64,000 nt of DNA from a virus (Duplodnaviria; Heunggongvirae; Uroviricota; Caudoviricetes): the IMG/VR virus record IMGVR_UViG_3300048998_000119, positions 13,214-77,213 of that record; one strand, written 5' to 3'. A program made the translations under genes and the position numbers. The first letter of the stretch is position 1. Each line of letters opens with the position of its first letter. Of the stretch, positions 10,781 through 25,018 are shown in pieces. A model generated the notes under the pieces. It was not told the DNA's origin. It worked only from the letters and a program-made list of their open reading frames with translations, and did no database searches.

Positions 10781-11143
10781 TTAGCCAGTGTTTTCCAACA
10801 CGGCTGCGAGATAGGCTTGACGAGCAGAATCTGAATCGTCAAAGTACCCCAAATGTTTCTGGCCTCCCAAAACCCGCAGGCGAGCCTGAAATTTTCGACG
10901 AGTACTATCCCAGTGATAACCTTTTTCTTGAGGTTTGTCTATAAGAAGGAGATTGTCGAGAGACAGATTATCATTATTCTGATCAACACAGACGACTGTT
11001 TTCCCCTTAGGGAGCGGGCCATGATGCAGCATCCACGCAATCACTCGCGGGAAGTATCTTGTGGTTTTGTACCGATAGCGAAGCGAGGGGTTCAGACGGA
11101 GCTGGTCCTGATACAGATGACGACCTATATGCTCAAACATCAA
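10781..11143 (-). CDS. HNH homing endonuclease with AP2 DNA-binding domain
   Basis: VVCVDQNNDNLSLDNLLLI (HNH_3-like) followed by YHWDSTRRKFQARLRVLGGQKHLGYFDDSDSARQAY (AP2). Confidence 0.65.
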   Translation of the reverse strand: MMFEHIGRHLYQDQLRLNPSLRYRYKTTRYFPRVIAWMLHHGPLPKGKTVVCVDQNNDNLSLDNLLLIDKPQEKGYHWDSTRRKFQARLRVLGGQKHLGYFDDSDSARQAYLAAVLENTG

Positions 11144-11159
11144 GTTTATCTCGCTTATC

Positions 11160-11290
11160 TTAAGACTAACCTAAAGGTTAAGTCAATTGAAAACCTTTAG
11201 GTTTAGTTCTTTTAGAAGAATTACTAAGAAGATCTTTCTCTAAAGGATCAACCTCAGGTTCAACCTTAAGGTTAAGAAAGCTCTCAGGGA
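11160..11290. repeat. cluster of 12-bp palindromes AACCT(T/A)(A/T)AGGTT in intergenic region upstream of HNH gene
   Basis: aacctaaaggtt (~11169), aacctttaggtt (~11195), aacctcaggtt half-site, aaccttaaggtt perfect palindrome (~11262). Confidence 0.6.
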
Positions 11291-11337
11291 GGGCTCTTAG
11301 GGCTAATTCAACGGGGTCTGGTAAGGGCGAACGATCG

Positions 11338-11400
11338 AAAAAAAAAAAAATTGGTGTAAAGATCCCCTCCCCACACCCAGCCCCGAAGGACCAAGCGTGA
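11338..11400 (-). terminator. putative terminator: GC hairpin CCCCTCC...GGAGGGG followed, after a 13-nt spacer, by T13
   Basis: read on minus strand downstream of lipoprotein gene stop at 11414; spacer longer than canonical. Confidence 0.4.
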
Positions 11401-11413
11401 GGAGGGGAGAAGG

Positions 11414-11611
11414 TTAGTTATTGTAGACGCATCGCCATTCGTTACTGTTCTGAATAGTTATCGCGCCTTCCAGGCCGTTCTCATCCGTCACAATCCAGGC
11501 ATAGCCTCGATTCAATGCGGGGAGTGTGCGCCCAGAGTCGACCTGTGTGCACTTACCACTGTTGTCGTGACAACCGGTGAGCAACAACAGTAAAAACAGT
11601 AGCTGTTTCAT
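11414..11611 (-). CDS. small lipoprotein (65 aa)
   Basis: signal peptide + lipobox LLLTGC. Confidence 0.45.
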   Translation of the reverse strand: MKQLLFLLLLLTGCHDNSGKCTQVDSGRTLPALNRGYAWIVTDENGLEGAITIQNSNEWRCVYNN

Positions 11612-11931
11612 GTGAACACCGCCTCACCATCTTGTGGAACACGTTCGTAGGTCTTCTCAAAGATGTCTGGCTTGCAGGGATAGAGTTCGCCGTTGATCCC
11701 TCGAATGATCCAGTCACCGGTCGAGACCTTCATGTCTCCCTCCAGTGTCTTGATGAACTGTTCGTCGCCACGCTCGAACAGAACACCCGAGACTGCAGCC
11801 TCAATCAGCCACGCAGGGATCGTTCCGGTCAAATCACTCTTCAGTATAGAGTTCTGAACCGCCTCGATCACCACAGGCTTTTTCTTATAAGCAAACGGAC
11901 TGGTGTGGAGGCTTACCATGAGTAGATCCAC
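11608..11931 (-). CDS. hypothetical protein (107 aa)
   Basis: ORF track. Confidence 0.45.
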   Translation of the reverse strand: MDLLMVSLHTSPFAYKKKPVVIEAVQNSILKSDLTGTIPAWLIEAAVSGVLFERGDEQFIKTLEGDMKVSTGDWIIRGINGELYPCKPDIFEKTYERVPQDGEAVFT

Positions 11932-12191
11932 GCGGCCGCGATGGTGAGCAAACTGACGAACACGCCTACCAGGTTGGCACCCGGTTCTGGCTTCTCATCC
12001 TTCTTTCGAAGCGAGGTCGCGGGAAGCAAGACAAAGCCGATCGTGATGTTGATCATCATGGCGAGAGCGATGGCGATGTCCCAGTGGAACACGTGCAACG
12101 CCGTATACTGGATGGCGTAACTGCGCAACCAGAAGGCGAAGAGGGCGAACACGAATACGCCCAGGATTTTCAGTGCGGTGTCAGATTTCAT
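11913..12191 (-). CDS. membrane protein (~92 aa; start trimmed to ATG at 12191 with GGAG RBS)
   Basis: three TM helices; the track ORF extends upstream to 12314 but would overlap the next gene by 130 nt. Confidence 0.45.
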   Translation of the reverse strand: MKSDTALKILGVFVFALFAFWLRSYAIQYTALHVFHWDIAIALAMMINITIGFVLLPATSLRKKDEKPEPGANLVGVFVSLLTIAAAWIYSW

Positions 12192-12486
12192 CGTTTTTCT
12201 CCAATTTATCTGCGATTTCGTTGAAGGTGAGTCCTGCTGTGTCATTCCAATGAATACACAGTCTACGCGTCTCGCTCTCCAGAAAATCTGGATACTGCAC
12301 ACACTTGGGATCAATTAGGGCACCCAACACACCGAGACAACAGAAAGAAATACATTTCTCGGCTGGAAAGCAAGCGCCCGACAGCTCAGGATCCGACACA
12401 AGCACCGCCAGCATACCCTCGCTCTGCTTGTACTCGCCCGAACGCAGGGCCGCGATCCAACGCTTCTTGAGTTCAGCTTCCATCAC
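12181..12486 (-). CDS. ALRSGEYKQ/CCLGVL family small protein, paralog A
   Basis: motifs WIAALRSGEYKQ, FCCLGVLGALIDP, FNEIADKLE. Confidence 0.55.
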   Translation of the reverse strand: MMEAELKKRWIAALRSGEYKQSEGMLAVLVSDPELSGACFPAEKCISFCCLGVLGALIDPKCVQYPDFLESETRRLCIHWNDTAGLTFNEIADKLEKNDEI

Positions 12487-12815
12487 AAGTTCTTCTCCAC
12501 ATAGTCGGCGATTTCGTCGAAAGACATTCTCTTAGCGTCGTTCATCGTCATGAACGCGTGTCCACCAAGTTCGGTCATGTCCGGATACTGTACGCGTTCG
12601 GGATTGATCAGCGCACCCAACACGCCTAAACAGCAGAACCCCACGCCCTCACACGCGGGTGCGTTGATGATCTCATCACCTTCTTTATCGACGATAAGCA
12701 TTTCTCTGGCTTGCTTATACTTGCCGGATCGCAGAGCGTCAATCCACTGCTTTTTGAGTTCCGGTGTCACTTGTACTTCTCCATCAGACTGAGGATTGAT
12801 TTGATGTCTTGCCAC
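12483..12815 (-). CDS. ALRSGEYKQ/CCLGVL family small protein, paralog B
   Basis: WIDALRSGKYKQ, FCCLGVLGALINP, FDEIADYVE; tandem with paralog A. Confidence 0.55.
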   Translation of the reverse strand: MARHQINPQSDGEVQVTPELKKQWIDALRSGKYKQAREMLIVDKEGDEIINAPACEGVGFCCLGVLGALINPERVQYPDMTELGGHAFMTMNDAKRMSFDEIADYVEKNL

Positions 12816-13111
12816 CGCGAGTCCAGCTTGATCTGTTCCAGAAGAAACTTAACGTCGTTCTCCTCCGGCGGACCGTACTTGCGCAGCCGCGCCTCCACGA
12901 AGAGTTTGGCGTCTTCCTTCGACATGAACTGACCGAGTGTGATGGTGGTGTTCTTGCTCAGTTGGCAGTTGGCCTTCAATCCGGGACCGGTGACATAAAT
13001 AGGTTTACCACGCGCCTGCGTGATTGAGTAGTCCTCTTTCTCACTGTTGATCTCAAAGCCCGGCCCCTCGTCGGTGAGGTCGCGCCAACCATTTGCCTCG
13101 TAGATGATCAC
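12767..13111 (-). CDS. hypothetical protein (114 aa)
   Basis: ORF track. Confidence 0.4.
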   Translation of the reverse strand: MIIYEANGWRDLTDEGPGFEINSEKEDYSITQARGKPIYVTGPGLKANCQLSKNTTITLGQFMSKEDAKLFVEARLRKYGPPEENDVKFLLEQIKLDSRWQDIKSILSLMEKYK

Positions 13112-13503
13112 GGACGACGCAGCTCGTCGAGGCGCTTCAGAAGCTCTTCCTCGGACGCGTTCTCCAGCGCCGTGTCGCGCTTCTTCTCCAGAATGTCGTG
13201 GATCTTGTCCGCCTCCTCACGACGCTTGGCTTCATTGCGGGCGTCCGCGTCTTCCTTCTGACGAACAGAGATCACGTACTTCACCACCTCCAACTGCTGA
13301 TCGAGCAAATTCCGCGCGCCGGTGTTGACGTCACGGTTCAGAAGCGAAGCCCCGACCAGCTTGTCGCGTGAAGCGATGATGCGCTGGCCAATGTTGTCGA
13401 GTGTGGCGAGCTTCAAGTCCCACAGCTGTTCGGTGGTGATGTTGGCGTTAGTGTCCGACGAGTAGCGGAACTTGTTGCGGAGTGCGTTTTCGAAGATGCT
13501 CAT
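13108..13503 (-). CDS. coiled-coil protein (131 aa)
   Basis: ORF track; charged heptad-rich. Confidence 0.45.
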   Translation of the reverse strand: MSIFENALRNKFRYSSDTNANITTEQLWDLKLATLDNIGQRIIASRDKLVGASLLNRDVNTGARNLLDQQLEVVKYVISVRQKEDADARNEAKRREEADKIHDILEKKRDTALENASEEELLKRLDELRRP

Positions 13504-13706
13504 GATTGGTTCTCTTTCAGATAGTTGATGATTGTAATAAGACTTGCTATACGAGGTAGATAAGCTGCGTCTTGTTGTGATAACTGTGCAATTAAATACT
13601 GTTCCACAGAGTACTCATACGACTTTATAAGAAAGTTTCTCTGTTTATCGGTCACAGCAATCGACTCACCACTAGGATGATAAAGCCGAACACAAGAATC
13701 AAACAA
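13500..13706 (-). CDS. hypothetical protein (68 aa)
   Basis: ORF track. Confidence 0.35.
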   Translation of the reverse strand: MFDSCVRLYHPSGESIAVTDKQRNFLIKSYEYSVEQYLIAQLSQQDAAYLPRIASLITIINYLKENQS

Positions 13707-13752
13707 CCCATCGGCGGTGGAATGGGTGGTTCGTCGTTCAGATAGAAATCCA

Positions 13753-13986
13753 TCAGTATTCCTTTTGTGGGTACTTGCTGCGTTTCTGTAGATCGAGTTC
13801 CAGACTATTCAAGTCACTGAGCTTGGAGACGTACTTGCTTTGATTGACGGCGTAAATACCATGCGTCCTATTGAGCTTCTCCAGCCACGCAAGATTGAAA
13901 GCACGTTCTTCTTTCTTATACTGCTCGTATTCTTTCTTTGTGGGAAAGTGTAAAGCGAGTCCGTCGCTTCCGTGCACACTATGCAT
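13753..13986 (-). CDS. hypothetical protein (77 aa)
   Basis: ORF track. Confidence 0.35.
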   Translation of the reverse strand: MHSVHGSDGLALHFPTKKEYEQYKKEERAFNLAWLEKLNRTHGIYAVNQSKYVSKLSDLNSLELDLQKRSKYPQKEY

Positions 13987-14203
13987 GTGAACGACTCACG
14001 ATGATGAGCAACAGAATGATGATTATCACGGCGAAACAACCCATTTTAAATACCCTTCGAGCGTTTAGACTGCTGCAATGCATCTGAATGCTTCACAATA
14101 TCGAGGTGCATAAGCTTTCGTATATGGTCAACTATTTTGTCTTGCCCCTTAATCTTGGCGTCCATCATTGTTTCAAGTCTATCCAACTCCCGCAACGTGA
14201 GCA

Positions 14204-16156
14204 TCAGAACTGAATCACATAAGGACGACCGTCGACCTTGACCTTCACCTGCTCAGGCTTGGTGCTGGAGAAGCCCACACCCGACAGCTGTTCTTTCTGA
14301 TGCGGAGCACGCGACCGTGAGCCGAGAACCTCAAACACCTTGCGATGCTCGTTGAGTTCGGCCTTCAGGTACTCATTGTGAATACCCCGAACAGACTCAG
14401 GATTCTCCATTTCCTTCACAAAGAAGAAGACGTGGAGATTGCCCGTGCCTTCACCCCAGTAGTTCGGGCTGAGTGTGATCGCGTCGAGCTCCCGGTATTG
14501 GCCCAACTGGACGCCCCACTTGTCGACCTTGCGTCCACCCACCTGGACCGAGTTGTCGCCCGCTCCGTATTGGACGATCTGTCCGTTTGTAACTCGGAAG
14601 CTGGCGGTCGCGACCACCTCGTTGTGGCGCACCTCACGCGGGCAGTTGAACTTCAGCAGCGTGTCACCACACTCGACTTCAACCTCGAAGCCCACGTCTT
14701 TAACTTCACGGTGTGTGAAGTTGTGAACGCCCACACGATACTCACCGTCCAGCAACTTGCTGAAGTAGACGTTCTCCACGGCGTCTCGACGATCGCCGCT
14801 GACGTTCATGTCCACGTCGAGCTGACCGTATGAACCGATCGGCTTCTTCGCGGCGAAGTGGATCTTGATACCCTTGCTGTCCCAGACATGAAGATCAAGA
14901 TCGTCTGTGTTGAACCAGCTCAGACTGATGCGAAGCGGAGCGTCCACCTTGCCGCCCGCCTGCTTGACACGTTCTTTCACGCTGTCCGTGACGTCGCCGT
15001 CGTAGGACCAGGAGAAAGGATTGTCCCACTTGAAGATAGACGAGCCGGTGGTGAGCGTCATGAAGTTGCCCGGATGCTCGATCAGCAACTCCACCTTCTT
15101 CGCGCCAGGAAGAATGGTCTTCAGGAAGCTGTCGGCGTCGATCGTCTCACCGTCCTTCGAAGGCTTCTTCTTGTTGAACGCCACGCCCGCCATGAGCAAC
15201 TCCAGCGGGGAGTTGATGCGATCGTTGTTGGCGACGAACAACAGATGCTCCATTGGAATGTCGTCAATTGTGGCCATGCGACGCGTGACGTCCATACCCA
15301 TTTCCTCGATCTTGGCGAGCGCCGCGTCGATCTGCTTCTGCGACACCAACGACTTGGGCTTCTTGTAGTTGTTTGGATCCAACATACGACCGAACGCCTC
15401 AGCCGCCTCGTCTGGGTCACGCTTCATGGACTTGTTGTTCGGATCGTTCCATTCAGCTAATTCAATCAAGAACGTGCCGATGCTGACATTGCGTAGACCC
15501 GCCACACGTGTCTTCAAGTGCTTCCACACGAACGTGTCGGATCCATCATACTGACGCGCCAGATCCAAGAAGCCGGACACCTGAGCACGGAACTCGGCGC
15601 CGCGATACAGACGGTTCTCGTCGATCATTTCCAGTGCCTGTTGTAAGACAGCCGGAGTGAACTGGTCCAGACCGCGCTTGAACACACCGAACAGATTGTT
15701 CAGGTCGCCGCGTTCCTTCGATGGCTGAGACACCCTGTGCTTGACGACACGACCGAAGAAGTGATCGTACTTGATCGTGGGATCCTCCTTGTCGCGATTG
15801 GGGCCGGAACCGTAGCTCGCCTGATCGGTACGATACACGCCGGTGATTGGAGCCTGGCGCACTAGATCGCGAAGAGCGGTCGCCACGATGTTGTACGGCA
15901 TAGGCAAGTTCACGTCGTCCCACACGGTGTCGCCGTCGATTGTGCGCAGACGCCCGATATTGCGGATGAAGTTCTTGCAGCAGTTGCAGTTGTGCCAGGT
16001 GTTGACACGGTGGATCGGATCGGTGCCGATCGGGAAGGCGCTGAGATACTTATCCCAGATGTCGTCCACGTCAACCGTGTAGAGTTCCTGTGAGGACATC
16101 GCGTCCCACTTTGAGGCGACGCTCTTCGAGAAAGTTTGAAATGCTGTCATGGTCAC
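14204..16156 (-). CDS. large hypothetical protein (650 aa) with N-terminal Cys cluster HNCNCC
   Basis: long uninterrupted ORF; no recognisable family. Confidence 0.55.
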   Translation of the reverse strand: MTMTAFQTFSKSVASKWDAMSSQELYTVDVDDIWDKYLSAFPIGTDPIHRVNTWHNCNCCKNFIRNIGRLRTIDGDTVWDDVNLPMPYNIVATALRDLVRQAPITGVYRTDQASYGSGPNRDKEDPTIKYDHFFGRVVKHRVSQPSKERGDLNNLFGVFKRGLDQFTPAVLQQALEMIDENRLYRGAEFRAQVSGFLDLARQYDGSDTFVWKHLKTRVAGLRNVSIGTFLIELAEWNDPNNKSMKRDPDEAAEAFGRMLDPNNYKKPKSLVSQKQIDAALAKIEEMGMDVTRRMATIDDIPMEHLLFVANNDRINSPLELLMAGVAFNKKKPSKDGETIDADSFLKTILPGAKKVELLIEHPGNFMTLTTGSSIFKWDNPFSWSYDGDVTDSVKERVKQAGGKVDAPLRISLSWFNTDDLDLHVWDSKGIKIHFAAKKPIGSYGQLDVDMNVSGDRRDAVENVYFSKLLDGEYRVGVHNFTHREVKDVGFEVEVECGDTLLKFNCPREVRHNEVVATASFRVTNGQIVQYGAGDNSVQVGGRKVDKWGVQLGQYRELDAITLSPNYWGEGTGNLHVFFFVKEMENPESVRGIHNEYLKAELNEHRKVFEVLGSRSRAPHQKEQLSGVGFSSTKPEQVKVKVDGRPYVIQF

Positions 16157-16294
16157 TGTCCTTGTATGAATTGACGAAGTGTTGCATTCACTCTGGTTTG
16201 CCAGCCGGGACCGGTGTTGCGCAGAGCGGCGAGCAAATCGGCGTCCAGTCGCAAGCTCACGGCGACTTTCGGGTTGTCCAGCTTGGGTCTACCT

Positions 16295-16501
16295 CTACCA
16301 GTCACGCAGTCGCTCTTTCTCTGCTTGAGAAACGATGCTGTAGTTCTCGAAACCTTCTCCTCCGTGGACTAAATCGTTCAGACGTTCCAGTTCGTTTTCG
16401 AGTTCCGTTGTGTCGCTGAGCGCCTTGGCTTGCAGACGAAGCTCACCCAGCTTCAGCAAGGCCTCTTCATGGGTGAGATGCTTTGTGGATTTGACGCCCA
16501 T
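16295..16501 (-). CDS. hypothetical protein (68 aa)
   Basis: ORF track. Confidence 0.35.
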   Translation of the reverse strand: MGVKSTKHLTHEEALLKLGELRLQAKALSDTTELENELERLNDLVHGGEGFENYSIVSQAEKERLRDW

Positions 16502-16665
16502 TACAGAACAGTCCAGATGACGGTGAGAAGTATACCGACAGCCGAGATAACACCTAAGCCACCCGCGATGACGGGAAGTACGTTGCTGTCGTCACCGCCC
16601 TCGGTCACCAAGCCCAGCAACATCGACAGAATGAATACTGTCATGAGAATTTTGATGAGAAGCAT
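16501..16665 (-). CDS. small two-TM membrane peptide (54 aa)
   Basis: own translation MLLIKILMTVFILSMLLGLVTEGGDDSNVLPVIAGGLGVISAVGILLTVIWTVL; GGAG RBS; below track cutoff. Confidence 0.3.
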   Translation of the reverse strand: MLLIKILMTVFILSMLLGLVTEGGDDSNVLPVIAGGLGVISAVGILLTVIWTVL

Positions 16666-16671
16666 ATAAAC

Positions 16672-16716
16672 TCCATTTTTAACCCTCCCACAGCCGGAGC
16701 TATGAGAGGGTGTTGA
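16672..16716 (-). promoter_or_regulatory. stem-loop + A-run + RBS module, copy C
   Basis: minus: CCCTCTCA...TGGGAGGG TTAAAAATGGAGTTTAT ATG. Confidence 0.4.
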
Positions 16717-16889
16717 GATTACTTCTTAGGAACGTCGAGCGCCGGAGCGTTCTGCTTGGTCACGACTTCCTCATCCGTTTCCAGCTTGTTGTCGGTCTGG
16801 TACATTTCCTTGACCATCTTCTTCTCGGCGTCGGTGGCGTCCGGGAACTGCTTTTCCCAGCTTGCGTAGAGCGACTTGTCGTATGCCAT

Positions 16890-17153
16890 TCAATGTTCCT
16901 TTGTAAATGCAACAAGAGAAACCAGATCGATCCCAGAATCTTTGCGGGCAACTTCTTTGCCGTCCACAACCTTGGTCAACGTCGGGTACTTTCTGATCAC
17001 CTTGTTTTGATGCCTGATGGGGCATTCTTCCAGCCAGTCATAAATAATTTCTCTGCCCGGAAGTAGAGTTTCTCGGAAGCAATCGATCGTCTCGACCAGC
17101 TCCTCGCTTTTCATCGACCAATGAGCTACGTAGACAATGTAGATTGTGCCCAT
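16890..17153 (-). CDS. hypothetical protein (87 aa)
   Basis: ORF track. Confidence 0.35.
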   Translation of the reverse strand: MGTIYIVYVAHWSMKSEELVETIDCFRETLLPGREIIYDWLEECPIRHQNKVIRKYPTLTKVVDGKEVARKDSGIDLVSLVAFTKEH

Positions 17154-17566
17154 TCTAATCTTTCCTCATGCGTCAATCGATATAACATGAGTAGTGTGTC
17201 TCCATGACAACGTTTCGGAGCACATAGACACAGCATGTTTTTACCGTCGAATTCTCGAAAATCTTGGTCTGCCACGTCTAGGTTAAGTAAACGGGTTGCG
17301 ATGTGCATAGCGTACTCGTCGCATACCTGATCACGCATCTTATCGTTCTTGATTGGTCTGTGGAGGGCCCATTTGGTGGGACGACCAATCCATTGAGACA
17401 GTCTGATCGCCGTGCGACTGCTGAAATGCTTGTTGATCACTTTGGTGTTGGTGGAAGTTTGATTCTTGGTTTCCCTCCGCATTCTCCCACCGCCGCCGAT
17501 CACTTCAACCAGTCTGACCATCGATGATCTTCGCCGTGTCCACATCCATGGTGAAGAAGCTGACAC
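17126..17566 (-). CDS. DUF4326-like protein (start uncertain)
   Basis: C-terminal motif NMLCLCAPKRCHGDTLL resembles the DUF4326 CxC(A)P..CHGD signature. Confidence 0.45.
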   Translation of the reverse strand: MSASSPWMWTRRRSSMVRLVEVIGGGGRMRRETKNQTSTNTKVINKHFSSRTAIRLSQWIGRPTKWALHRPIKNDKMRDQVCDEYAMHIATRLLNLDVADQDFREFDGKNMLCLCAPKRCHGDTLLMLYRLTHEERLEWAQSTLST

Positions 17567-18355
17567 CGCCTTCCGAGATAAAGCTCTTGGACTTGGCGTC
17601 CTCCGGCATCACCTCATCTGTCTTACGTGGACGCCAGAGCCAGTTGTCCTCGTCCAGGGACCAGCCGGGCGGAAGCTCCTGACCCAGCCATTCTAATTTA
17701 GCCATGTGTGCTCTCCAACATTTCACCCAAGTCACGATACACAGTCATGAGGTATTCCATAAGCTGTTCACGTGTCTTGAGCTCTGCTTCACCGTTCTCG
17801 ATCACGCTATAAGTGTTGAGGCTGACTTGAATGACTTCGAATATCATTCAGCTACCGTGATCACGATGTTTACTTTCTTGGCGTCGAAAATTTCGAGACG
17901 TTTGATGTCGCCTCGATAAGACAACAGCCACTCATCCAACTTAGTCTTGTCGGATAGTCGATAGACATCTTTGCCATTGCTTCCCGCTTGTTCGCTGGAA
18001 GATAGCGCCAATACAATGAACATCAGTCAGGCTTAACCGGCTTGCGATAAGCTTCCCTCAACGCCACCTGCTTGTTCTTCTGCTGAAAGCGTTCGTATCC
18101 GATCACGTTGGTAGAAGCCTGGATCGCAGCTTCGCGATCCTCCAACGGCAGTTCCCTCATCGCTTTCGCCGTCGAGAATTTGTCCATAATGCACCTCAAT
18201 TTTGATGTCAAGTTTCTCGGCCTGATACACTTCTGCCTGCTTGCGTTCGTCGCCGCTGAGCCGCAGTATATGCGCGGTGAGAAGATCTTTGGTTTTGAAC
18301 TCGTACTTGACTTTGCCTTTACCGTTTATATGTGGAAGTAAACAAATATACATAA

Positions 18356-18682
18356 TTACAGCACCTCTGTGAGAATACGCCAGCCAGTCATTTTCAGACC
18401 TTCGAAAGTGACCTCGATCGGTTTACCCTTCAACCCACTGAGGTCATCAGTCTTGGCGTCATGAAGAAGGTTACGCAAGAAATCAAAAAGATCTGCTTTT
18501 TGTTGATTCCAGGCCTCCAATGAGTATTCCGCGGTCTCTCTTCGATTAGCCCATGGTCCTTTAAAATCATGTATGCTTCCATCGGGAGTCCACATGTAAA
18601 TAGTAATGCCGAACTGCGCATCTTGGTAGCCACCATAGCCAAAGCCTACTTCGGTGATCTTACCTAATGACTTTACTGTCAT
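18356..18682 (-). CDS. hypothetical protein (108 aa)
   Basis: ORF track. Confidence 0.4.
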   Translation of the reverse strand: MTVKSLGKITEVGFGYGGYQDAQFGITIYMWTPDGSIHDFKGPWANRRETAEYSLEAWNQQKADLFDFLRNLLHDAKTDDLSGLKGKPIEVTFEGLKMTGWRILTEVL

Positions 18683-19113
18683 GAGAACACCTCTTTAAGA
18701 AGCGCGCCGATGTTGTCGTGGATGTAAATCCAGAAGATAACTCCCGCGATCTCGTGAGGTATGCCCCACTCACCCAAGTTTTCCGCGTCGAGTCGTTCTT
18801 CGACGAGCTTGTCCATCTTCTTGTCGAGCAGGACCGCCTGCGTGTGGGTCAGCTGCGGAAAAAGCTCCCGCATGCGTGTGACACGTTTCTCGATTCCCGC
18901 GACGTCCGGATCAATACTTGGCATCGCGAATCCTCCGAGCAATCTCTCTGAACGACTCACGGTCATCGTTGCGGCTGGCGAGGTAATCAGCTTCTTCTTG
19001 ACTAATCTTGAAAAAGTCACGCACGGCTTGAGGCGGCATCGCGTAATTGTGTTTGTTATACATATAACGTCGTTCTTGATCGGCGTGCCAACCTTCAGGT
19101 TGGAAAAGGTCAC
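18679..19113 (-). CDS. hypothetical protein (144 aa; possibly MazG-like helical fold)
   Basis: ORF track; weak EIAGVIFWIYIHDNIG similarity only. Confidence 0.3.
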   Translation of the reverse strand: MTFSNLKVGTPIKNDVICITNTITRCRLKPCVTFSRLVKKKLITSPAATMTVSRSERLLGGFAMPSIDPDVAGIEKRVTRMRELFPQLTHTQAVLLDKKMDKLVEERLDAENLGEWGIPHEIAGVIFWIYIHDNIGALLKEVFS

Positions 19114-19237
19114 AAGCCACCCCCAGGCAACAGAAGCCCTCTTCTGTCCTCAGCGAGCCTTGTGCCTGCTTGTACTCACCTGACTCAAGGGCGCTCGCCC
19201 ACGCCTCTCTCCTCTCGGAGAAGCTTCCATTCAGCAT
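18911..19237 (-). CDS. ALRSGEYKQ/CCLGV family small protein, paralog C (start trimmed)
   Basis: WASALESGEYKQ, FCCLGVACDL, FREIARRIR. Confidence 0.45.
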   Translation of the reverse strand: MLNGSFSERREAWASALESGEYKQAQGSLRTEEGFCCLGVACDLFQPEGWHADQERRYMYNKHNYAMPPQAVRDFFKISQEEADYLASRNDDRESFREIARRIRDAKY

Positions 19238-19685
19238 AGACGTTGATAAATTCTTTTCTACGACTTTGGGCGTAGCGGACGGTCGCGCCGGTGCCGCTGT
19301 GAGAGTAGCCATTAAAGTTGACCAGAAGCTTTTGAGAGTCATCGACTATAGCCTTATTTCTGAGGAGTGTAAGTTTGTCGTCGTACTTCTCGCCAAACAC
19401 ACGTTCGACTTCGGCGTGGTCGCGCAGAGACGCCCAACGGAACCTGCTCTGCTTCGGCCAAGCATTTGCCTGATCCTCGTAGGGAATGTAGCAACCATAA
19501 GGTATACCCAACTCCCAGCAAGCTGTGGCGCACGCCTGATCCCAGCCCAACGCCATTCCTTGAATAACCGCCTTGGGTGTAATTTCTTTCAGATGAATCT
19601 TAGCCACCTCCACCAGAAGCTGGAAGGCCTCTTCCGAGTAACCTCCCAGATCCGGTGGACGATGACCGCTTACGCCCAGAATCAT
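19185..19685 (-). CDS. YpsA-like SLOG domain protein (DUF1273-like)
   Basis: N-terminus MILGVSGHRPPDLGGY...QGMALGWDQACATACWELGIPYGCYIPYE resembles YpsA/DUF1273. Confidence 0.5.
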   Translation of the reverse strand: MILGVSGHRPPDLGGYSEEAFQLLVEVAKIHLKEITPKAVIQGMALGWDQACATACWELGIPYGCYIPYEDQANAWPKQSRFRWASLRDHAEVERVFGEKYDDKLTLLRNKAIVDDSQKLLVNFNGYSHSGTGATVRYAQSRRKEFINVYAEWKLLREERGVGERP

Positions 19686-20077
19686 ACCGGAAAAGGATTC
19701 TTATCTGGATAGACAACACCGTTTACGCCAGTATGCCAGAAGAGCGCTTCGCAGTAAGCCTCTCTCGCCATAACCAGTGTCCAGCAGCCTCCCGGCGAAA
19801 CGTCCACAATCTTGTGCATCGCGCGGGCGTCACGATAAAGCGACTCACCTTCACGATTGATCTGCACATCTTCAATATACAAACCGGATCGATCTGAACG
19901 CGCCCATCGCTCTTCGACGTACCAGCCTTTCAGAATATGACTGTGGAAGTCCCACGGATGACTATGCGGGTCGGAGTGGTCACGATCCTTCAGATGATGT
20001 ATAACCGGAGAGAAGGGCCAAGGTCCCTCCCCCAAGTGATACTTCGTGAAGTGTGGACCCATTTCTTCAACACGCAT
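19682..20077 (-). CDS. His-rich hypothetical protein (131 aa)
   Basis: HSDPHSHPWDFHSHIL cluster suggests metal binding. Confidence 0.4.
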   Translation of the reverse strand: MRVEEMGPHFTKYHLGEGPWPFSPVIHHLKDRDHSDPHSHPWDFHSHILKGWYVEERWARSDRSGLYIEDVQINREGESLYRDARAMHKIVDVSPGGCWTLVMAREAYCEALFWHTGVNGVVYPDKNPFPV

Positions 20078-20553
20078 CAGCCGAAAGTCTTCTGCATGAC
20101 GACCTGGACCTTGTTGTCCGTGCTGTCGAGCCGAACCTGATACACGTCGCGATCGAGTGCGTTGATCACCGCCAGCGCGTTCTCGATGTCGGCGACCGAG
20201 GGATCCACCTGAACGAGATTCTCGACGCGTGCGTTCTTGTACTTGCGCGGCGGCTTCTTTTCGGTCAGCGGACGTTCCAAATCGATGATGAACACGTTGT
20301 CTGAAGTCTCAGTGGCCTCATACTCTGTCTTTCCCCATTGTTCACCGGAAAGCGTCGACGCGATCAGTGCCTGACAAGGCAGATCCGCATTGCTGTGCTC
20401 GCCGGTGCCCAGCGTCACTGCGCCTCCTCGACGAACGTAAACGGTGCGGTTATGAACATTAACGTCGAAATGAGTACCATACTTTTCGCGGAATGCCTTG
20501 CTCGTGTAGAGAAGCAGACCGCTGGTGGTGTTGCTGATTGCGAACTTGGTCAT
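20077..20553 (-). CDS. hypothetical protein (~158 aa, start at MTKFAIS)
   Basis: AAGGAAA RBS; 1-nt spacer from upstream stop. Confidence 0.4.
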   Translation of the reverse strand: MTKFAISNTTSGLLLYTSKAFREKYGTHFDVNVHNRTVYVRRGGAVTLGTGEHSNADLPCQALIASTLSGEQWGKTEYEATETSDNVFIIDLERPLTEKKPPRKYKNARVENLVQVDPSVADIENALAVINALDRDVYQVRLDSTDNKVQVVMQKTFG

Positions 20554-20554
20554 G

Positions 20555-21334
20555 TCATTTCCTTTTGATTTTGAGCGTTGCGATCGAAGATATTTTTGGA
20601 CTGTCTCCTGAAGCTGTGGAGACAGGCATTGTTGGGGCGGTTGGAGATTTAAGCTGCGGACTCTTTCTGATTTGAAGCGGCTTATCTTCGCTCCCCGACG
20701 TCTCTTTGGGCTTCCCAATGATCAATCCTTTCGTGGAAAGTTTCTTTGGTGGTTCATAAGGAGTCCAGTTAGGCTTACGTCCGGGTTCAGTGTAAGTAGC
20801 TCCCGGAAGTTTTTCTGCAGCATAGTAACGTCGATAGCCGACGACGGCGTCTTCTGTGGACGGTCCGACATAGTAGGCATCTCTGTTTGGCCCATAGGCT
20901 TGCGCCGGAGCGGTCCAGTTGCGCCACGCGAACAACTCAAGCCAAGGCTTCATTTGAGCCACGGCTCGTCGTCCGTTTCTGAACTTCAAAACATCCTTGT
21001 TTCTGTGTCTGAAGTCGTATTGCCGAATGATTTCCTCCAGATGGAGAACAAGCCATTCGACGTTACCCAAGCCTTCGGTCAACCAGATACCGCAGGGGTG
21101 CTTCGGATTCTGGACACCAACCCAAGGATCGGGAGCGTGCAGCGCGTCGTCTTCCGGATCAAGTTGATTCAACTCAAAGCCACTGACGAGTTCCTCACTC
21201 GACAACGGGCCGTGATACTGCATCGCCCAACCGGACAACAACTGCGTGGATTCATTTATCTGTGAACGACAGTGGACGTCGTGCAGCCATTTCGCCGCCT
21301 GAACGGGATCCCTGTCCAGGAAGAAAATGTTCAC
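20555..21334 (-). CDS. hypothetical protein (259 aa), basic Pro-rich C-terminus
   Basis: ORF track. Confidence 0.45.
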   Translation of the reverse strand: MNIFFLDRDPVQAAKWLHDVHCRSQINESTQLLSGWAMQYHGPLSSEELVSGFELNQLDPEDDALHAPDPWVGVQNPKHPCGIWLTEGLGNVEWLVLHLEEIIRQYDFRHRNKDVLKFRNGRRAVAQMKPWLELFAWRNWTAPAQAYGPNRDAYYVGPSTEDAVVGYRRYYAAEKLPGATYTEPGRKPNWTPYEPPKKLSTKGLIIGKPKETSGSEDKPLQIRKSPQLKSPTAPTMPVSTASGDSPKISSIATLKIKRK

Positions 21335-21716
21335 GCGTTGAGTTGCTCCACGATGATGTTGAACGCGCCCTTCACAATGGCATAATCAGTGCTGGCGTAT
21401 CCGATGGAAGTGTTGTCGCTGTTATCTGGATCCGGACTGAGCCACTCGATGCTGTCGATATTGATAGCTAGGGGTTGCAAGGTTTTTGCGTCGATGTACA
21501 TACGAAACTTAGGCATGGTTGAAGTGTCCCATCACAATTATGAGATTGACGACGAAGAGAACGGCGGCGACAATGAACCACGGCGTGTCTTCCTCACGAT
21601 AGAAGACGAAGAGGCAAACAGCGGTCATCAGCAACGCGATGTAATTCAGAATGATCATGTCAACTCCAAAATTATTGCCCCCAGACATCCGTTAGGACAT
21701 CCAGGGGCAGTTCGAC

Positions 21717-22340
21717 TTACTTCTTCTTCGGGGTCGCGACCTTCACGGGTGCGGCTTCCTCGACTTCAGGTTCGGCCTCAGTGGTCTGAGCGGCAGCCTT
21801 GGCGGCAGCCTTCTCAGCCTGATAGCGCGCGAGACCTTCCTTGGCCTTCGGGTTCAGAGCGCGCTTGACGCGACCTGCCTCGTAAGCTTCCAGAATCGCG
21901 GTCTTGTTCTCGATCACGAAGTCGGCGACGTCCGCGTTGCCGTCTGCGAGCGTGGTGAGCTCGGTCTTGACGACAGCCGTCTTCTCGTCGGCGTCCATAC
22001 GCGTGACCTTCGGCCAGCGGAAGGTATCCAGGATCGCGGCGGCGTTGTCGGCCACGAACTTGAACTTCGGCTCGTTGGCGTCAGAGATAGCCTTGAGCGC
22101 CTTTTCGAGCTGGTTCTTCTCGCTCTTGCTCACACGCTTGATCGTACCTGCCTCGAAAGCATCCTCGATCTGCGTGCGGTTGTCGATGAGCCACGTCACC
22201 AGTTCCGCGTTGTCGTCGATGAGACCATTCAGCGCCTCGGTGATAACCGGACGACGCATGTGGTCCATAGCCTCAGCCTTCGAGTCGAAGGTCTGGCCAT
22301 CGGGAGTGCGGTATACTTGGTTCAGTTCCATGTCAGCCAT
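21717..22340 (-). CDS. hypothetical protein with internal duplication, Ala/Lys-rich tail
   Basis: two copies of LIDNRTQIEDAFEAGTIKR / VIENKTAILEAYEAGRVKR. Confidence 0.45.
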   Translation of the reverse strand: MADMELNQVYRTPDGQTFDSKAEAMDHMRRPVITEALNGLIDDNAELVTWLIDNRTQIEDAFEAGTIKRVSKSEKNQLEKALKAISDANEPKFKFVADNAAAILDTFRWPKVTRMDADEKTAVVKTELTTLADGNADVADFVIENKTAILEAYEAGRVKRALNPKAKEGLARYQAEKAAAKAAAQTTEAEPEVEEAAPVKVATPKKK

Positions 22341-22355
22341 GTGATTTCTCTCTTG

Positions 22356-22388
22356 ATAAAAAGCTCGTCTCCACCCGGAGACGGCGTG
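22356..22388 (-). terminator. putative rho-independent terminator (CGTCTCC-gggt-GGAGACG + TTTTTAT on minus strand)
   Basis: read on minus strand directly upstream of gene 21717..22340. Confidence 0.45.
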
Positions 22389-22559
22389 ATTGGGTCGTTG
22401 GAAATAAGGGTTAATAAAACGGGGTCCGGTCTGAGTGCTCGCGTCGTGGTCGCCGTTACAAAGTTCCCGTTTGGGCCAACGCGAGTGCGTCGGGCGGGGC
22501 GGCGGAGGACGCGAGTGACCGGGGTCCGGGCGGCACACCGGACAGCATAATCATATCAG

Positions 22560-22823
22560 TTACTTCCGATCATGTTGCGGACGAGGACGTGACTTTTCGA
22601 TCACCTTGATCACGTCGTCGACCACGTGATTGTCCTTGGGCCATACACCCGACCAGACCTTGAACGCCTTGGTCCGATCGCCGTTTTCGTAGTTCAGATG
22701 ACCCTTGTCGTAGACGGCCACACGATTTTCTTTGATGACGAAGCAGCGAGTGGCTCCCAGATCCTGCGTGAGAAACTTGACGGGGCCGTTGTAACGATCG
22801 CTGAAACCGATGTACTTGTTCAC
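22560..22823 (-). CDS. hypothetical protein (87 aa)
   Basis: ORF track. Confidence 0.4.
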   Translation of the reverse strand: MNKYIGFSDRYNGPVKFLTQDLGATRCFVIKENRVAVYDKGHLNYENGDRTKAFKVWSGVWPKDNHVVDDVIKVIEKSRPRPQHDRK

Positions 22824-23008
22824 TTTACTTCACCTTCAATGAGATCGAGTTCACTGGTCTTCTTTTCGTAGTAGTGGCCCTCCCGAGTGAACTTCTCGAG
22901 TTTGCCCTTTTCGTTCTTGGCCGTCAGAGGAAATTTGCCGTGTAAGTTATGAAGCACGATCGTGAACAGCTTGCCTTTGCCGTTCTTGTAAGACTTGTTG
23001 GGAAGAAA
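22820..23008 (-). CDS. hypothetical basic protein (~62 aa, start at MFLPN)
   Basis: ORF track, trimmed. Confidence 0.3.
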   Translation of the reverse strand, partial: FLPNKSYKNGKGKLFTIVLHNLHGKFPLTAKNEKGKLEKFTREGHYYEKKTSELDLIEGEVK

Positions 23009-23171
23009 CATAACTAACCTCAGAGGTCGAGTACACCCTGCGCCCATCGCGGTGTAATTTGTTTGTCGATAATCTTGTCGTAGTATTCTTGCATCTTCTC
23101 CGGATCAATGTGTTCCACATCGAACTGATCTCTGTATGCACGTCGCAGAGCTGAACGTTGTTGGTCTCGCG

Positions 23172-23468
23172 TCACAGCTTCTCGTCGATCCAATCAGCGA
23201 TTTCGGCGAAAGTTTTACCTTGAGCGTCATTCATATTGACGCAGGTGTTGACGGCCGAACCTTCTAATTCAGCCGGACCGTAAACATCAGTGTGAACATA
23301 CGTGCCGCTTCTGTCGGTGAACACACTTGGTTCCACAATTTCGGCCAAAACACCGAGACAGCAATGACTGACCGGAGAGTCGGTGATGTTTCGCAGCATG
23401 AACTTCGTTTGTGTGTACTCACCTGAACGGAGTGCGGCCGTCCACTTTTCTTTGATTTCTTTGTTCAT
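23172..23468 (-). CDS. ALRSGEYTQ/CCLGVL family small protein, paralog D
   Basis: WTAALRSGEYTQ, HCCLGVLAEIVEP, FAEIADWIDE. Confidence 0.5.
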   Translation of the reverse strand: MNKEIKEKWTAALRSGEYTQTKFMLRNITDSPVSHCCLGVLAEIVEPSVFTDRSGTYVHTDVYGPAELEGSAVNTCVNMNDAQGKTFAEIADWIDEKL

Positions 23469-23471
23469 TTC

Positions 23472-24443
23472 TTATTCCTCGAAGATGGTGTCGATGAGGA
23501 CGGCGAGATAGGTGCTGTCGATGCGCTGATTGGCGTCTCGATTCTGCAGAGCAGTGATGAGCTGATGCATGTACGCCACATCGACGCCCATTAGCTGTTC
23601 CTTCAACTGCACCGGATCCTCGAAATTGATGTCGCTGACTTGCCGCATCATCTTGAGAACCTGACCGGCGCTGATCCGCCAACCACGTTTGATGAACTTG
23701 CGCATGCGTAGAACAGAAGCCAGAGGATACAGACTACCGCTGTACACTAGTGTCTTGGACAGCAAACACTCCATCATTTCCGGAGTGATGATGACCTTGT
23801 CCGACGCATAGTCGTAGACGCCGGTGCAGTGCAGATAGTCGTAGTTCTTGTGGATCTGATCTGCTTCACCGTAGAACCGAATAATGATCTGCGTGCGATC
23901 CGTCAGCGTGATGGCGTTGTCCGTCATGAACACTGGCTTGTACTTGTGAGTCGGCGTCTTAACTTCATCCACCAAATCGATGATCTGATCCATGTCGTCC
24001 GACGAGGCCGAGAGTGAAGACACGAAGTCTTCCGTGGCTTGATCCGGTTGGGCCTCGAAGTACTTATACGCTTCCTGATCCACACCGGCCGTGCCCGCCG
24101 ACTTCATATAAATCAGCACACGATCTTCACTCTCGCCCGCCAGATTCAAGCGAGATTCAACTTTGACGGCGGGTTTGTACTCCACGGTGTCGGTGCCCGT
24201 CTTGGCCTGATTGAACTTCTGAACGTAGTACTCAGCCACCCGCTTAGTCATTTCGAGCGACTTGAAGTAGACGTCGTAGTCGTTGACCTTCTCGCCGAGC
24301 ATCATACTGCACACAGCGCCTCCCGTCACGAGCACCTCGTCCTTGATGTCGTGAGCCAGCGTGGGATCGTCGATAGACGCGATGAACTTGTTGAGCTTGT
24401 CGCGAATGAGCTTGCGAATAGTCCTGCGATGAAAACCTGACAT
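23472..24443 (-). CDS. tRNA nucleotidyltransferase / poly(A) polymerase family (PolyA_pol head domain) protein
   Basis: LVTGGAVCSMMLGEKVNDYDVYF matches the hhGGAVRDxLLGxxxxDhD head; FMTDNAITL resembles the RDFTINA motif. Confidence 0.6.
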   Translation of the reverse strand: MSGFHRRTIRKLIRDKLNKFIASIDDPTLAHDIKDEVLVTGGAVCSMMLGEKVNDYDVYFKSLEMTKRVAEYYVQKFNQAKTGTDTVEYKPAVKVESRLNLAGESEDRVLIYMKSAGTAGVDQEAYKYFEAQPDQATEDFVSSLSASSDDMDQIIDLVDEVKTPTHKYKPVFMTDNAITLTDRTQIIIRFYGEADQIHKNYDYLHCTGVYDYASDKVIITPEMMECLLSKTLVYSGSLYPLASVLRMRKFIKRGWRISAGQVLKMMRQVSDINFEDPVQLKEQLMGVDVAYMHQLITALQNRDANQRIDSTYLAVLIDTIFEE

Positions 24444-24457
24444 TTAGTTATCCTAAC

Positions 24458-25018
24458 TTAGTTGTTGACGATGCGGAATTCATCAGCGTAAACGGCAAAA
24501 CCGCGAGTGGCGAAAGATGACTGAAGCGACTCCAGCAGCTTGGCCTGCTTCGCCTCGGTCAACTCAGGATCGAGCGCGAGCGCGTTGATTTTCTGAATGC
24601 GCTCCTCGACCTGCGCGGCTTCCCTCTTGAGTCGTTCGGCGTGCTCCTCGTTGTTCTTGAGCAGCTTGGCGAGATTTAGCAGCACCGAGTTGTGCTCCAC
24701 AACCGTGGCTTCGTTCTGGATACCGCTGAGGGTCATTTTCTGAGTCGTCATTTTAAAGCTCCAATTGAGTTCGCGAATGAAATTCATCGCTTCGTTGTAA
24801 TCACTATCTGAGAAAGGCACTGTGCCCATCCAGTATAACTCTGCTTTGAAGAGTCCTTTTGTGGCGTTGACGTAGACTTCACCATCTTTCCAAACGCCGT
24901 CCCAATGACCGTTGATCACCCAGAAATTGATGCCGCCGTCCGGGTTCATTCCCTTGTTGCGGCACCAAAGGCTCAGCCGACCATCTTGGCCGAGCGCGAA
25001 CTGGTCAGGTAGGTACAT
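24458..25018 (-). CDS. hypothetical protein (186 aa), coiled-coil C-terminus
   Basis: ORF track; overlaps rSAM gene stop. Confidence 0.45.
   Translation of the reverse strand: MYLPDQFALGQDGRLSLWCRNKGMNPDGGINFWVINGHWDGVWKDGEVYVNATKGLFKAELYWMGTVPFSDSDYNEAMNFIRELNWSFKMTTQKMTLSGIQNEATVVEHNSVLLNLAKLLKNNEEHAERLKREAAQVEERIQKINALALDPELTEAKQAKLLESLQSSFATRGFAVYADEFRIVNN

Follow-up and report, generated by a model that had tools for sequence, protein, structure and literature searches.

Four diverged DUF8296 paralogs in a replication and nucleotide-metabolism gene block of a Caudoviricetes phage

The four genes of the window

In a 64,000-nucleotide (nt) stretch of a Caudoviricetes phage (IMG/VR record IMGVR_UViG_3300048998_000119, positions 13,214 to 77,213; this whole stretch is called the window below), four genes for small proteins were analysed and were shown, by sequence comparison, to be homologous, diverged paralogs of the family DUF8296 (phrog_18067). 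The likely gene limits were taken from public gene calls together with the junction sequences, and the genes were designated paralogs A to D as follows (aa, amino acids; ORF, open reading frame):

12181..12483, minus strand: paralog A, DUF8296 protein of 100 aa, ATG at 12483 (GTG at 12486 is a possible alternative)
12483..12770, minus strand: paralog B, DUF8296 protein of 95 aa, GTG at 12770 (longest ORF to 12815)
18911..19237, minus strand: paralog C, DUF8296 protein of 108 aa (longest ORF to 19342)
23172..23468, minus strand: paralog D, DUF8296 protein of 98 aa, nearest to the family consensus

In the public gene calls, D is P0001, C is P0002 (positions 14232-14558 of locus L002), A is identical to P0003, and B is P0004. 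The four ORFs listed in the initial annotation were all present at those positions on the minus strand, except that B likely ends at 12770, not at 12815, because its likely start is the GTG at 12770. At the junctions, the ATG of A overlaps the stop of B (TGATG), the GTG of B overlaps the stop of the gene upstream (GTGA), A and the downstream membrane ORF overlap by 11 nt, and C begins inside the YpsA/SLOG gene upstream of it, with 53 nt of that gene's 3′ end in common. The stop/start overlap of A and B suggests that the two may be translationally coupled, and overlapping stops and starts of this kind would fit co-expression of the copies in an operon. All four proteins are acidic, with an isoelectric point (pI) of 4.7-5.4.

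Homology and family membership

In a four-way alignment made with MAFFT, 22 columns were invariant, comprising W, AL-SG-Y-Q, CCLGV, P, ND and F-EIA, and these columns fall into the three blocks named in the initial annotation. The hidden Markov model (HMM) of phrog_18067 matched all four proteins at E values of about 8e-12 to 1e-16 (A, 7.8e-12; B, 7.6e-14; C, 2.2e-13; D, 1.1e-15), the matches spanning only the N-terminal 45-78 positions of the 129-position profile, and it also matched all 120 homologs that were collected. PF26948 (DUF8296) was the precomputed Pfam assignment for P0001-P0004 and for both copies in L002, and a profile of the 120 homologs matched the four window proteins with E values of 1e-22 to 6e-30. 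Because of the phrog_18067 match, the PF26948 assignment and the 120-homolog profile, the homology is beyond chance; these three and the alignment agree in bearing out the paralogy that the initial annotation had proposed for the tandem and the dispersed copies. The three sequence blocks quoted there as shared by the copies (around ALRSGEYKQ, CCLGVL and F-x-EIAD) are real, but their wording does not hold for every copy, since C has ALESG, CCLGVA and FREIAR, and D has YTQ for YKQ. Every position conserved at 95% or more throughout the family was present in all four copies, and at R14 (numbering of copy D), a position conserved at 92%, C carries E. No fifth copy was detected in a six-frame HMM scan of the 64-kb window, the next best E value being about 1.

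The four proteins were also scanned against other collections. The hmmscan of Pfam-A was empty for all four because the PF26948 model was missing from the local copy used. Nothing significant was obtained from NCBIfam, no copy matched the PADLOC HMMs for anti-phage defence at E values up to 1, and profile searches of the PDB by sequence, using three alignments, gave nothing below E 1; the four proteins had no match in anti-defence, defence or PDB families. A literature search found no paper on PF26948, DUF8296, phrog_18067 or the sequence motifs.

Paralogs A and B, the tandem partners, were reciprocal best hits with 52% identity. For C and for D, the nearest relatives were copies from other phages and not those of the window; C, the most divergent of the four and a member of the sub-type 'ALESG ... 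CCLGVAC', was nearer to foreign homologs (e.g. P0091 and P0157) than to A, B or D. These relationships point to three old lineages and one old tandem duplication. Synonymous differences among the copies were near or beyond saturation (pS 0.74-0.84), with lower nonsynonymous differences (pN 0.34-0.53), from which it follows that all four copies are old and have been under long-term purifying selection.

Protein structure and conservation

A model of D was built with AlphaFold2 using the 120 aligned homologs (predicted local distance difference test (pLDDT), 91.4; predicted template modelling score (pTM), 0.85). The predicted elements were a helix at residues 3-15, three short strands within residues 19-35, a helix at 37-45 that starts at the Cys-Cys pair, and helices at 70-81 and 87-97, and the model was poorly defined around residues 50-60. 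Each product was shown to be soluble and mostly acidic and to consist of one domain of about 100 aa, with a predicted fold of helix 1, a small beta-hairpin or meander, helix 2 beginning at Cys-Cys, a variable excursion and two C-terminal helices. A two-domain natural fusion (P0123) was also modelled (pLDDT, 76.8; pTM, 0.62), and the packing of its domains was not settled by the model.

Conservation was calculated per column over 382 sequences. At least 95% conservation was found at W9, A12, L13, S15, G16, Y18, Q20, L25, C36, C37, L38, G39, V40, N80, D81, F87, I90 and A91, with values of 99% for C36, 98% for C37, 99% for N80 and D81, and 96-97% for Q20, Y18 and S15; R14 was conserved at 92% and a third cysteine, C42, at 80%. 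The Cys-Cys pair that had been described as invariant, with a suggestion that it might serve metal or disulfide chemistry, is therefore invariant in all window copies and nearly so in the family at large. The near-invariant core is made up of the N-terminal ~45 and the C-terminal ~22 residues; its polar set consists of R14-S15-G16-x-Y18-x-Q20, C36-C37 and N80-D81, and its N-terminal part is basic. Between residues 47 and 75 the family is hypervariable in sequence, and the length of this stretch ranges from 16 to 84 aa; in alignments of tandem arrays, copies within one array differed mainly in this central insert. Paralogs A and B are atypical in two respects: their inserts, at 16-17 aa, are among the shortest of the family, and few members have a longer hairpin-to-helix-2 segment than theirs (29-31 aa; family median, 16). 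This long hairpin carries extra cysteines, and A has six cysteines in all.

Such a set of invariant polar residues could belong to a small thiol-dependent enzyme or redox protein of nucleotide or DNA metabolism, in which Cys36 or Cys37 would be the nucleophile or both would form a redox pair, Arg-Ser, Tyr, Gln and Asn-Asp would line the pocket for the substrate, and the choice of substrate would fall to the insert. The invariance of C36/C37, N80/D81, Q20, Y18 and S15 (96-99%), the position of the Cys pair at a strand-to-helix junction, at the start of helix 2, in a confident model, and frequent nucleotide-metabolism neighbours, including ribonucleotide reductase (RNR), ThyX, MazG, dCMP deaminase and ligases, would all agree with this. 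An enzyme of this kind is nevertheless considered unlikely: 100 aa is small for a cofactor-bearing enzyme, there is neither a conserved His nor the second acid typical of Cys hydrolases, no enzyme-like fold was recognised, the motif is not of the CxxC thioredoxin type, and arrays of up to 8 copies would be unusual for a metabolic enzyme.

A protein of the thioredoxin or glutaredoxin type was considered and rejected, the model being helical with a small hairpin and without a thioredoxin-fold match, and the cysteines being a vicinal CC and not CxxC.

The charge of the family is unevenly distributed, with an average net charge of +3.6 in the N-terminal 27 residues and of about -8.5 in the remainder; the median pI of the family is 4.9, and 22% of the members have a pI above 6. 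The initial annotation had suggested a DNA mimic or an anti-restriction protein, a group to which Ocr and ArdA belong, and the small size and acidity (pI 4.7-5.4) of the window proteins, their location among small accessory genes and the proximity of D to a Gad2 homolog are compatible with it. The acidity of the family is only moderate, however, with the more basic fraction just given and a basic N-terminus; proteins that work by charge mimicry are not marked by invariant Cys, Asn, Asp and Gln, and there was no match to anti-restriction families or in Pfam, PHROG, NCBIfam or the PDB, so that this explanation is regarded as very improbable.

A DNA-binding regulator was also weighed, since the C-terminal motif 'ND-x4-SF-x-EIADYIE' may resemble the first helices of a helix-turn-helix (HTH) such as those of sigma-70 region 4 and LuxR-type proteins. 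Scattered weak matches of single members to Pfam HTH models were obtained (E 0.005-0.16). Against them, neither Pfam nor a fold search gave a significant HTH match, the proteins have an acidic net character, and a recognition helix is lacking because the protein ends right after its C-terminal helix; a regulatory role is hardly to be expected.

Size, distribution and copy number of the family

A HMMER search of 1.84 billion representative proteins yielded 47,477 clusters (clustered at 50% identity) with E values of 1e-3 or below, and 37,271 with E values of 1e-10 or below. Proteins with two or three tandem DUF8296 domains, i.e. natural fusions, also exist. More than 526 confirmed viral loci were found in IMG/VR, and a pattern-limited scan of one genome per species gave 59 loci, distributed over Proteobacteria, Actinobacteria, Bacteroidota, Planctomycetota, Myxococcota, Chloroflexi, CPR bacteria, a Deinococcus plasmid and two archaeal metagenome-assembled genomes. 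The copy in Larkinella lies in a prophage-like region with DnaB, KilA-N/ANT and DUF5131 genes. Among GenBank phages, tblastn matches were found in only 12 of the 50,697 records, namely in Bradyrhizobium phage ppBjS10J-1, Alteromonas phages AD45-P1 to P4, Synechococcus phages B3 and B23, Ralstonia phage RSP15 and two Stenotrophomonas jumbo phages, and all annotated matches were labelled 'hypothetical protein'. The copies include gp094 of AD45-P1 and WAX24506.1 of ppBjS10J-1.

When copies were counted within 10 kb on either side, at least two were present in 22 of 62 dereplicated viral loci and in 15 of 59 genome loci, nearly always on the same strand. Successive copies in the viral loci were directly adjacent in 19 of 33 pairs and more than 1 kb apart in 10. 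Arrays of 5-8 genes occur in L014/L057, L045, L146 and Synechococcus phage B3 (gp85-89), and the following tandem arrays were delimited:

L146, 3655..6360: tandem DUF8296 array
L014, 8241..11461: tandem DUF8296 array
L144 (Synechococcus phage B3), gp85-gp89: tandem DUF8296 array

The array of L146, a 205-kb contig, adjoins a Ro60/TROVE-vWA gene, and it holds one 117-aa gene without a Pfam match that may be a degenerate copy. Because multiple copies, tandem or dispersed, are a trait of the family, the arrangement of two in tandem and two dispersed is ordinary for DUF8296. The window comes from one more phage with several copies of a catalogued, uncharacterised domain, a finding that is real but ordinary for its family.

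Genomic context

All four copies lie in a long co-directional block, which also encodes a 5′-3′ exonuclease, a primase, a class II ribonucleotide reductase, a DNA ligase, a radical-SAM-like protein, a YpsA/SLOG protein, a DUF4326 protein and a DUF8224 protein. The initial annotation had spoken of a phage early region; the block is one of replication and nucleotide-metabolism genes rather than a demonstrated early region. The features around the four genes were as follows:

14204..16156, minus strand: DUF8224 protein of 650 aa (PF26675; phrog_1735, E 4e-179), between A/B and C
17126..17566, minus strand: DUF4326 protein of 146 aa, among the small genes of this block
19185..19685, minus strand: YpsA/SLOG protein of 166 aa, 3′ end overlapping the start of C
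19682..20077, minus strand: protein of 131 aa matching phrog_4786 'cysteine dioxygenase' (E 3.7e-22), preceding the SLOG gene
20555..21334, minus strand: protein of 259 aa matching phrog_624 'DNA binding protein' (E 1.3e-24), without a Pfam match
23472..24443, minus strand: Gad2-family protein of 323 aa (PF26128, precomputed; phrog_4400)
21709..21676 and 11377..11353, minus (coding) strand: terminator-like hairpins predicted from sequence

The DUF8224 protein is a large conserved phage protein without functional annotation. Of the two terminator-like hairpins, one has a 15-bp stem with 8 G-C pairs and the other a 10-bp stem followed by T8; their positions suggest that D may belong to a transcription unit apart from that of C, B and A. 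Promoter-like sites were not above chance (11 found, 8.2 expected), and no tRNA gene was detected by ARAGORN in the whole window. A megablast search of positions 11000..25000 against GenBank phages gave no match, which suggests a phage without a sequenced close relative; the contig was present in a JGI metagenome and in one Logan assembly (SRR27584636, 77 kb).

Paralog D lies 3 nt downstream of the 323-aa Gad2 (anti-Gabija) homolog, and this association recurred in only one other locus, L068, where a homolog with 41% identity lies 8 kb away on the opposite strand. It is the one hint from context towards the role as an inhibitor of host functions, DNA mimic or anti-restriction protein that the initial annotation had suggested. 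Recurrent neighbours were sought in three ways. In a clustering of 2,633 neighbour ORFs, the best cluster occurred in 11 of 81 loci. By Pfam and PHROG scans, the 149 immediate neighbours were heterogeneous, some being small genes without a known function and the annotated ones including DNA polymerase A, PD-(D/E)XK and YqaJ exonucleases, ligases, clamp loaders, RNA ligases, RlaP, DprA-like and HD proteins, MazG and dCMP deaminase, most of them single cases. In iterative HMM searches, RNA ligase, Ro60, Macro, NADAR, Gad2-like, SLOG and DUF4326 genes were each found in at most 4 of ~140 loci. None of the three approaches revealed a conserved partner gene, and the absence of a recurrent neighbour indicates that DUF8296 has no obligate partner and is a free-standing accessory gene of the nucleic-acid-metabolism module. 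Genes of ADP-ribose processing (Macro and NADAR) were observed within a few kb of DUF8296 clusters in L148 (2188..3305) and L004; NADAR was present in 4 of ~140 loci, too few to call an association.

The constant location within a DNA/RNA-metabolism block, on the same strand, could mean that DUF8296 is an accessory subunit of the phage replication or repair machinery, such as a polymerase-, clamp- or ligase-associated factor, and DNA polymerase A (2 cases), clamp loaders, ligases and exonucleases are indeed among its immediate neighbours. Such a subunit is thought quite unlikely, given that no single enzyme recurs as a neighbour, that the copy number varies from 1 to 8, and that the family is absent from nearly all cultured phages sharing the same replication enzymes.

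The Macro, NADAR or NAMPT genes near some loci bear on another explanation, in which DUF8296 would be a sponge for nucleotide immune signals, the pockets of its homo- or hetero-oligomers sequestering cyclic or ADP-ribose-derived signals and different copies binding different signals. Like the sponges, the proteins are short, phage-borne, stand-alone and widespread; their polar residues are conserved, their N-terminal part is basic, and the tandem-domain fusions parallel the sponge-sponge fusions and oligomeric pockets of known sponges (bioRxiv 10.1101/2025.07.12.664507). The motifs of the family were found, however, in 0 of the 124 IMG/VR-prioritised candidates of that study, even though IMG/VR is rich in members of DUF8296. 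Overall the proteins are acidic, with a single strongly conserved basic residue, R14 (92%), and no similarity to Tad1, Tad2, Acb2 or other viral structures was detected in the BFVD library. A sponge is accordingly held to be as improbable as a replication subunit.

Possible function and significance

The interpretation favoured here, and only tentatively, is that DUF8296 is a stand-alone binder whose constant core contacts a conserved partner or ligand, whose insert sets the specificity, and whose role lies in takeover of the host or counter-defence. Under this interpretation, the phage would produce the binders as accessory proteins alongside its genes for replication and nucleotide metabolism. 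What the constant core contacts would be common to bacteria of different phyla and could be a small molecule bearing phosphate or a conserved machine of the host, and the variable insert would tune specificity. Several old, diverged copies would be kept per phage, in tandem, dispersed or fused in one polypeptide, and might cover variants of the target or permit hetero-oligomers; the role would likely be host takeover or counter-defence and not core replication. A conserved target is suggested by the spread of the family through Proteobacteria, Actinobacteria, Bacteroidota, phages of Cyanobacteria, Planctomycetes, CPR bacteria and others, and an accessory rather than essential role by its rarity in cultured phages (12 of 50,697 records). 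The binder would also agree with the scale of the family, the constant core beside a variable insert, the uneven charge, the multi-copy habit and the natural fusions, the lack of an obligate partner, the Gad2 homolog beside D, the purifying selection on the copies and the stop/start overlaps.

Several points weigh against the binder. Cys-Cys, Asn-Asp and Gln are almost completely invariant, which is more usual where a protein catalyses a reaction or binds a ligand than where it inhibits another protein. The counter-defence binders that are known are usually fast-evolving and narrowly distributed. The Gad2 homolog beside D amounts in essence to one case, and neither sequence nor fold searches gave a homolog with a known function in Pfam, NCBIfam, PADLOC, the PDB or BFVD.

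A broader proposal, which we put forward as speculative and somewhat doubtful, is that DUF8296 could represent an unrecognised, very abundant class of host-manipulation proteins whose fold has no solved relative. In these, an invariant thiol pocket would bind a target shared across phyla or act on it chemically, and the hypervariable insert, diversified in arrays of up to eight genes and in fused proteins, would supply the repertoire of specificities. The family itself was already catalogued, and what is new here is another member locus of an uncharacterised family. The interest therefore rests with the family and not with this instance, the window adding one more typical example. With ~47,000 clusters at 50% identity, many host phyla and no solved structure to which a relationship could be detected, DUF8296 ranks with the larger phage families that lack a known function, and its rigid set of polar residues with a vicinal Cys-Cys, its hypervariable insert and its strong tendency to form arrays make it a good experimental target. 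The ligand or partner, once found, would annotate tens of thousands of genes and might reveal a new way in which phages manipulate their hosts.

Comparison with known systems

The sponges Tad1, Tad2, Acb2, Acb4, Sequestin and Lockin are comparable to DUF8296 in being short, stand-alone and widespread phage proteins that form domain fusions. They differ in that there is no similarity in sequence or fold, and DUF8296 is net acidic and not included in the published candidate list. The function of known sponges depends on conserved pocket residues (bioRxiv 10.1101/2025.07.12.664507).

Arrays of immunity or inhibitor paralogs share with DUF8296 a conserved scaffold with variable segments, the tandem arrangement and multi-domain fusions. 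Polymorphic-toxin immunity genes form tandem paralog arrays beside toxin genes in bacterial chromosomes. DUF8296, in contrast, is located in phage replication modules without a partner gene, and its polar residues are far more conserved.

DUF6197 (PF19698; gp47 and gp72 of Gordonia phage Nebulosus) resembles DUF8296 in the order of its elements, namely an N-terminal helix, the motifs G-W-x-K, C-A-L-G-A, L-P and F-N-D, and a C-terminal helix. In Gordonia phage Nebulosus, a DUF6197 gene lies downstream of DNA polymerase I and a second copy is present in the genome, and related phages carry tandem two-domain versions (PMC10586128). These habits are also those of DUF8296. Weak DUF6197 matches were obtained for 7 of 120 DUF8296 members (best E 0.005) and for none of the four window proteins. 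In the comparison of the two profiles with hhalign, the CxLG and ND motifs were aligned, at E values of 0.027 and 0.068 and a probability too low for significance (<2%). DUF6197 differs in having one invariant Cys where DUF8296 has the Cys-Cys pair, and if the link were real, only the first Cys of the pair would be common to both families.

The closest likeness is to DUF8296/phrog_18067 itself. The four copies share with it the length, the motif set W-x2-ALRSG-x-Y-x-Q, CCLGV, ND and F-x-EIA, the phage context and the multi-copy habit, and they depart from it only in the long hairpin and minimal insert of A and B and in the ALESG/GVAC sub-type of C, all of which are within the range of the family.
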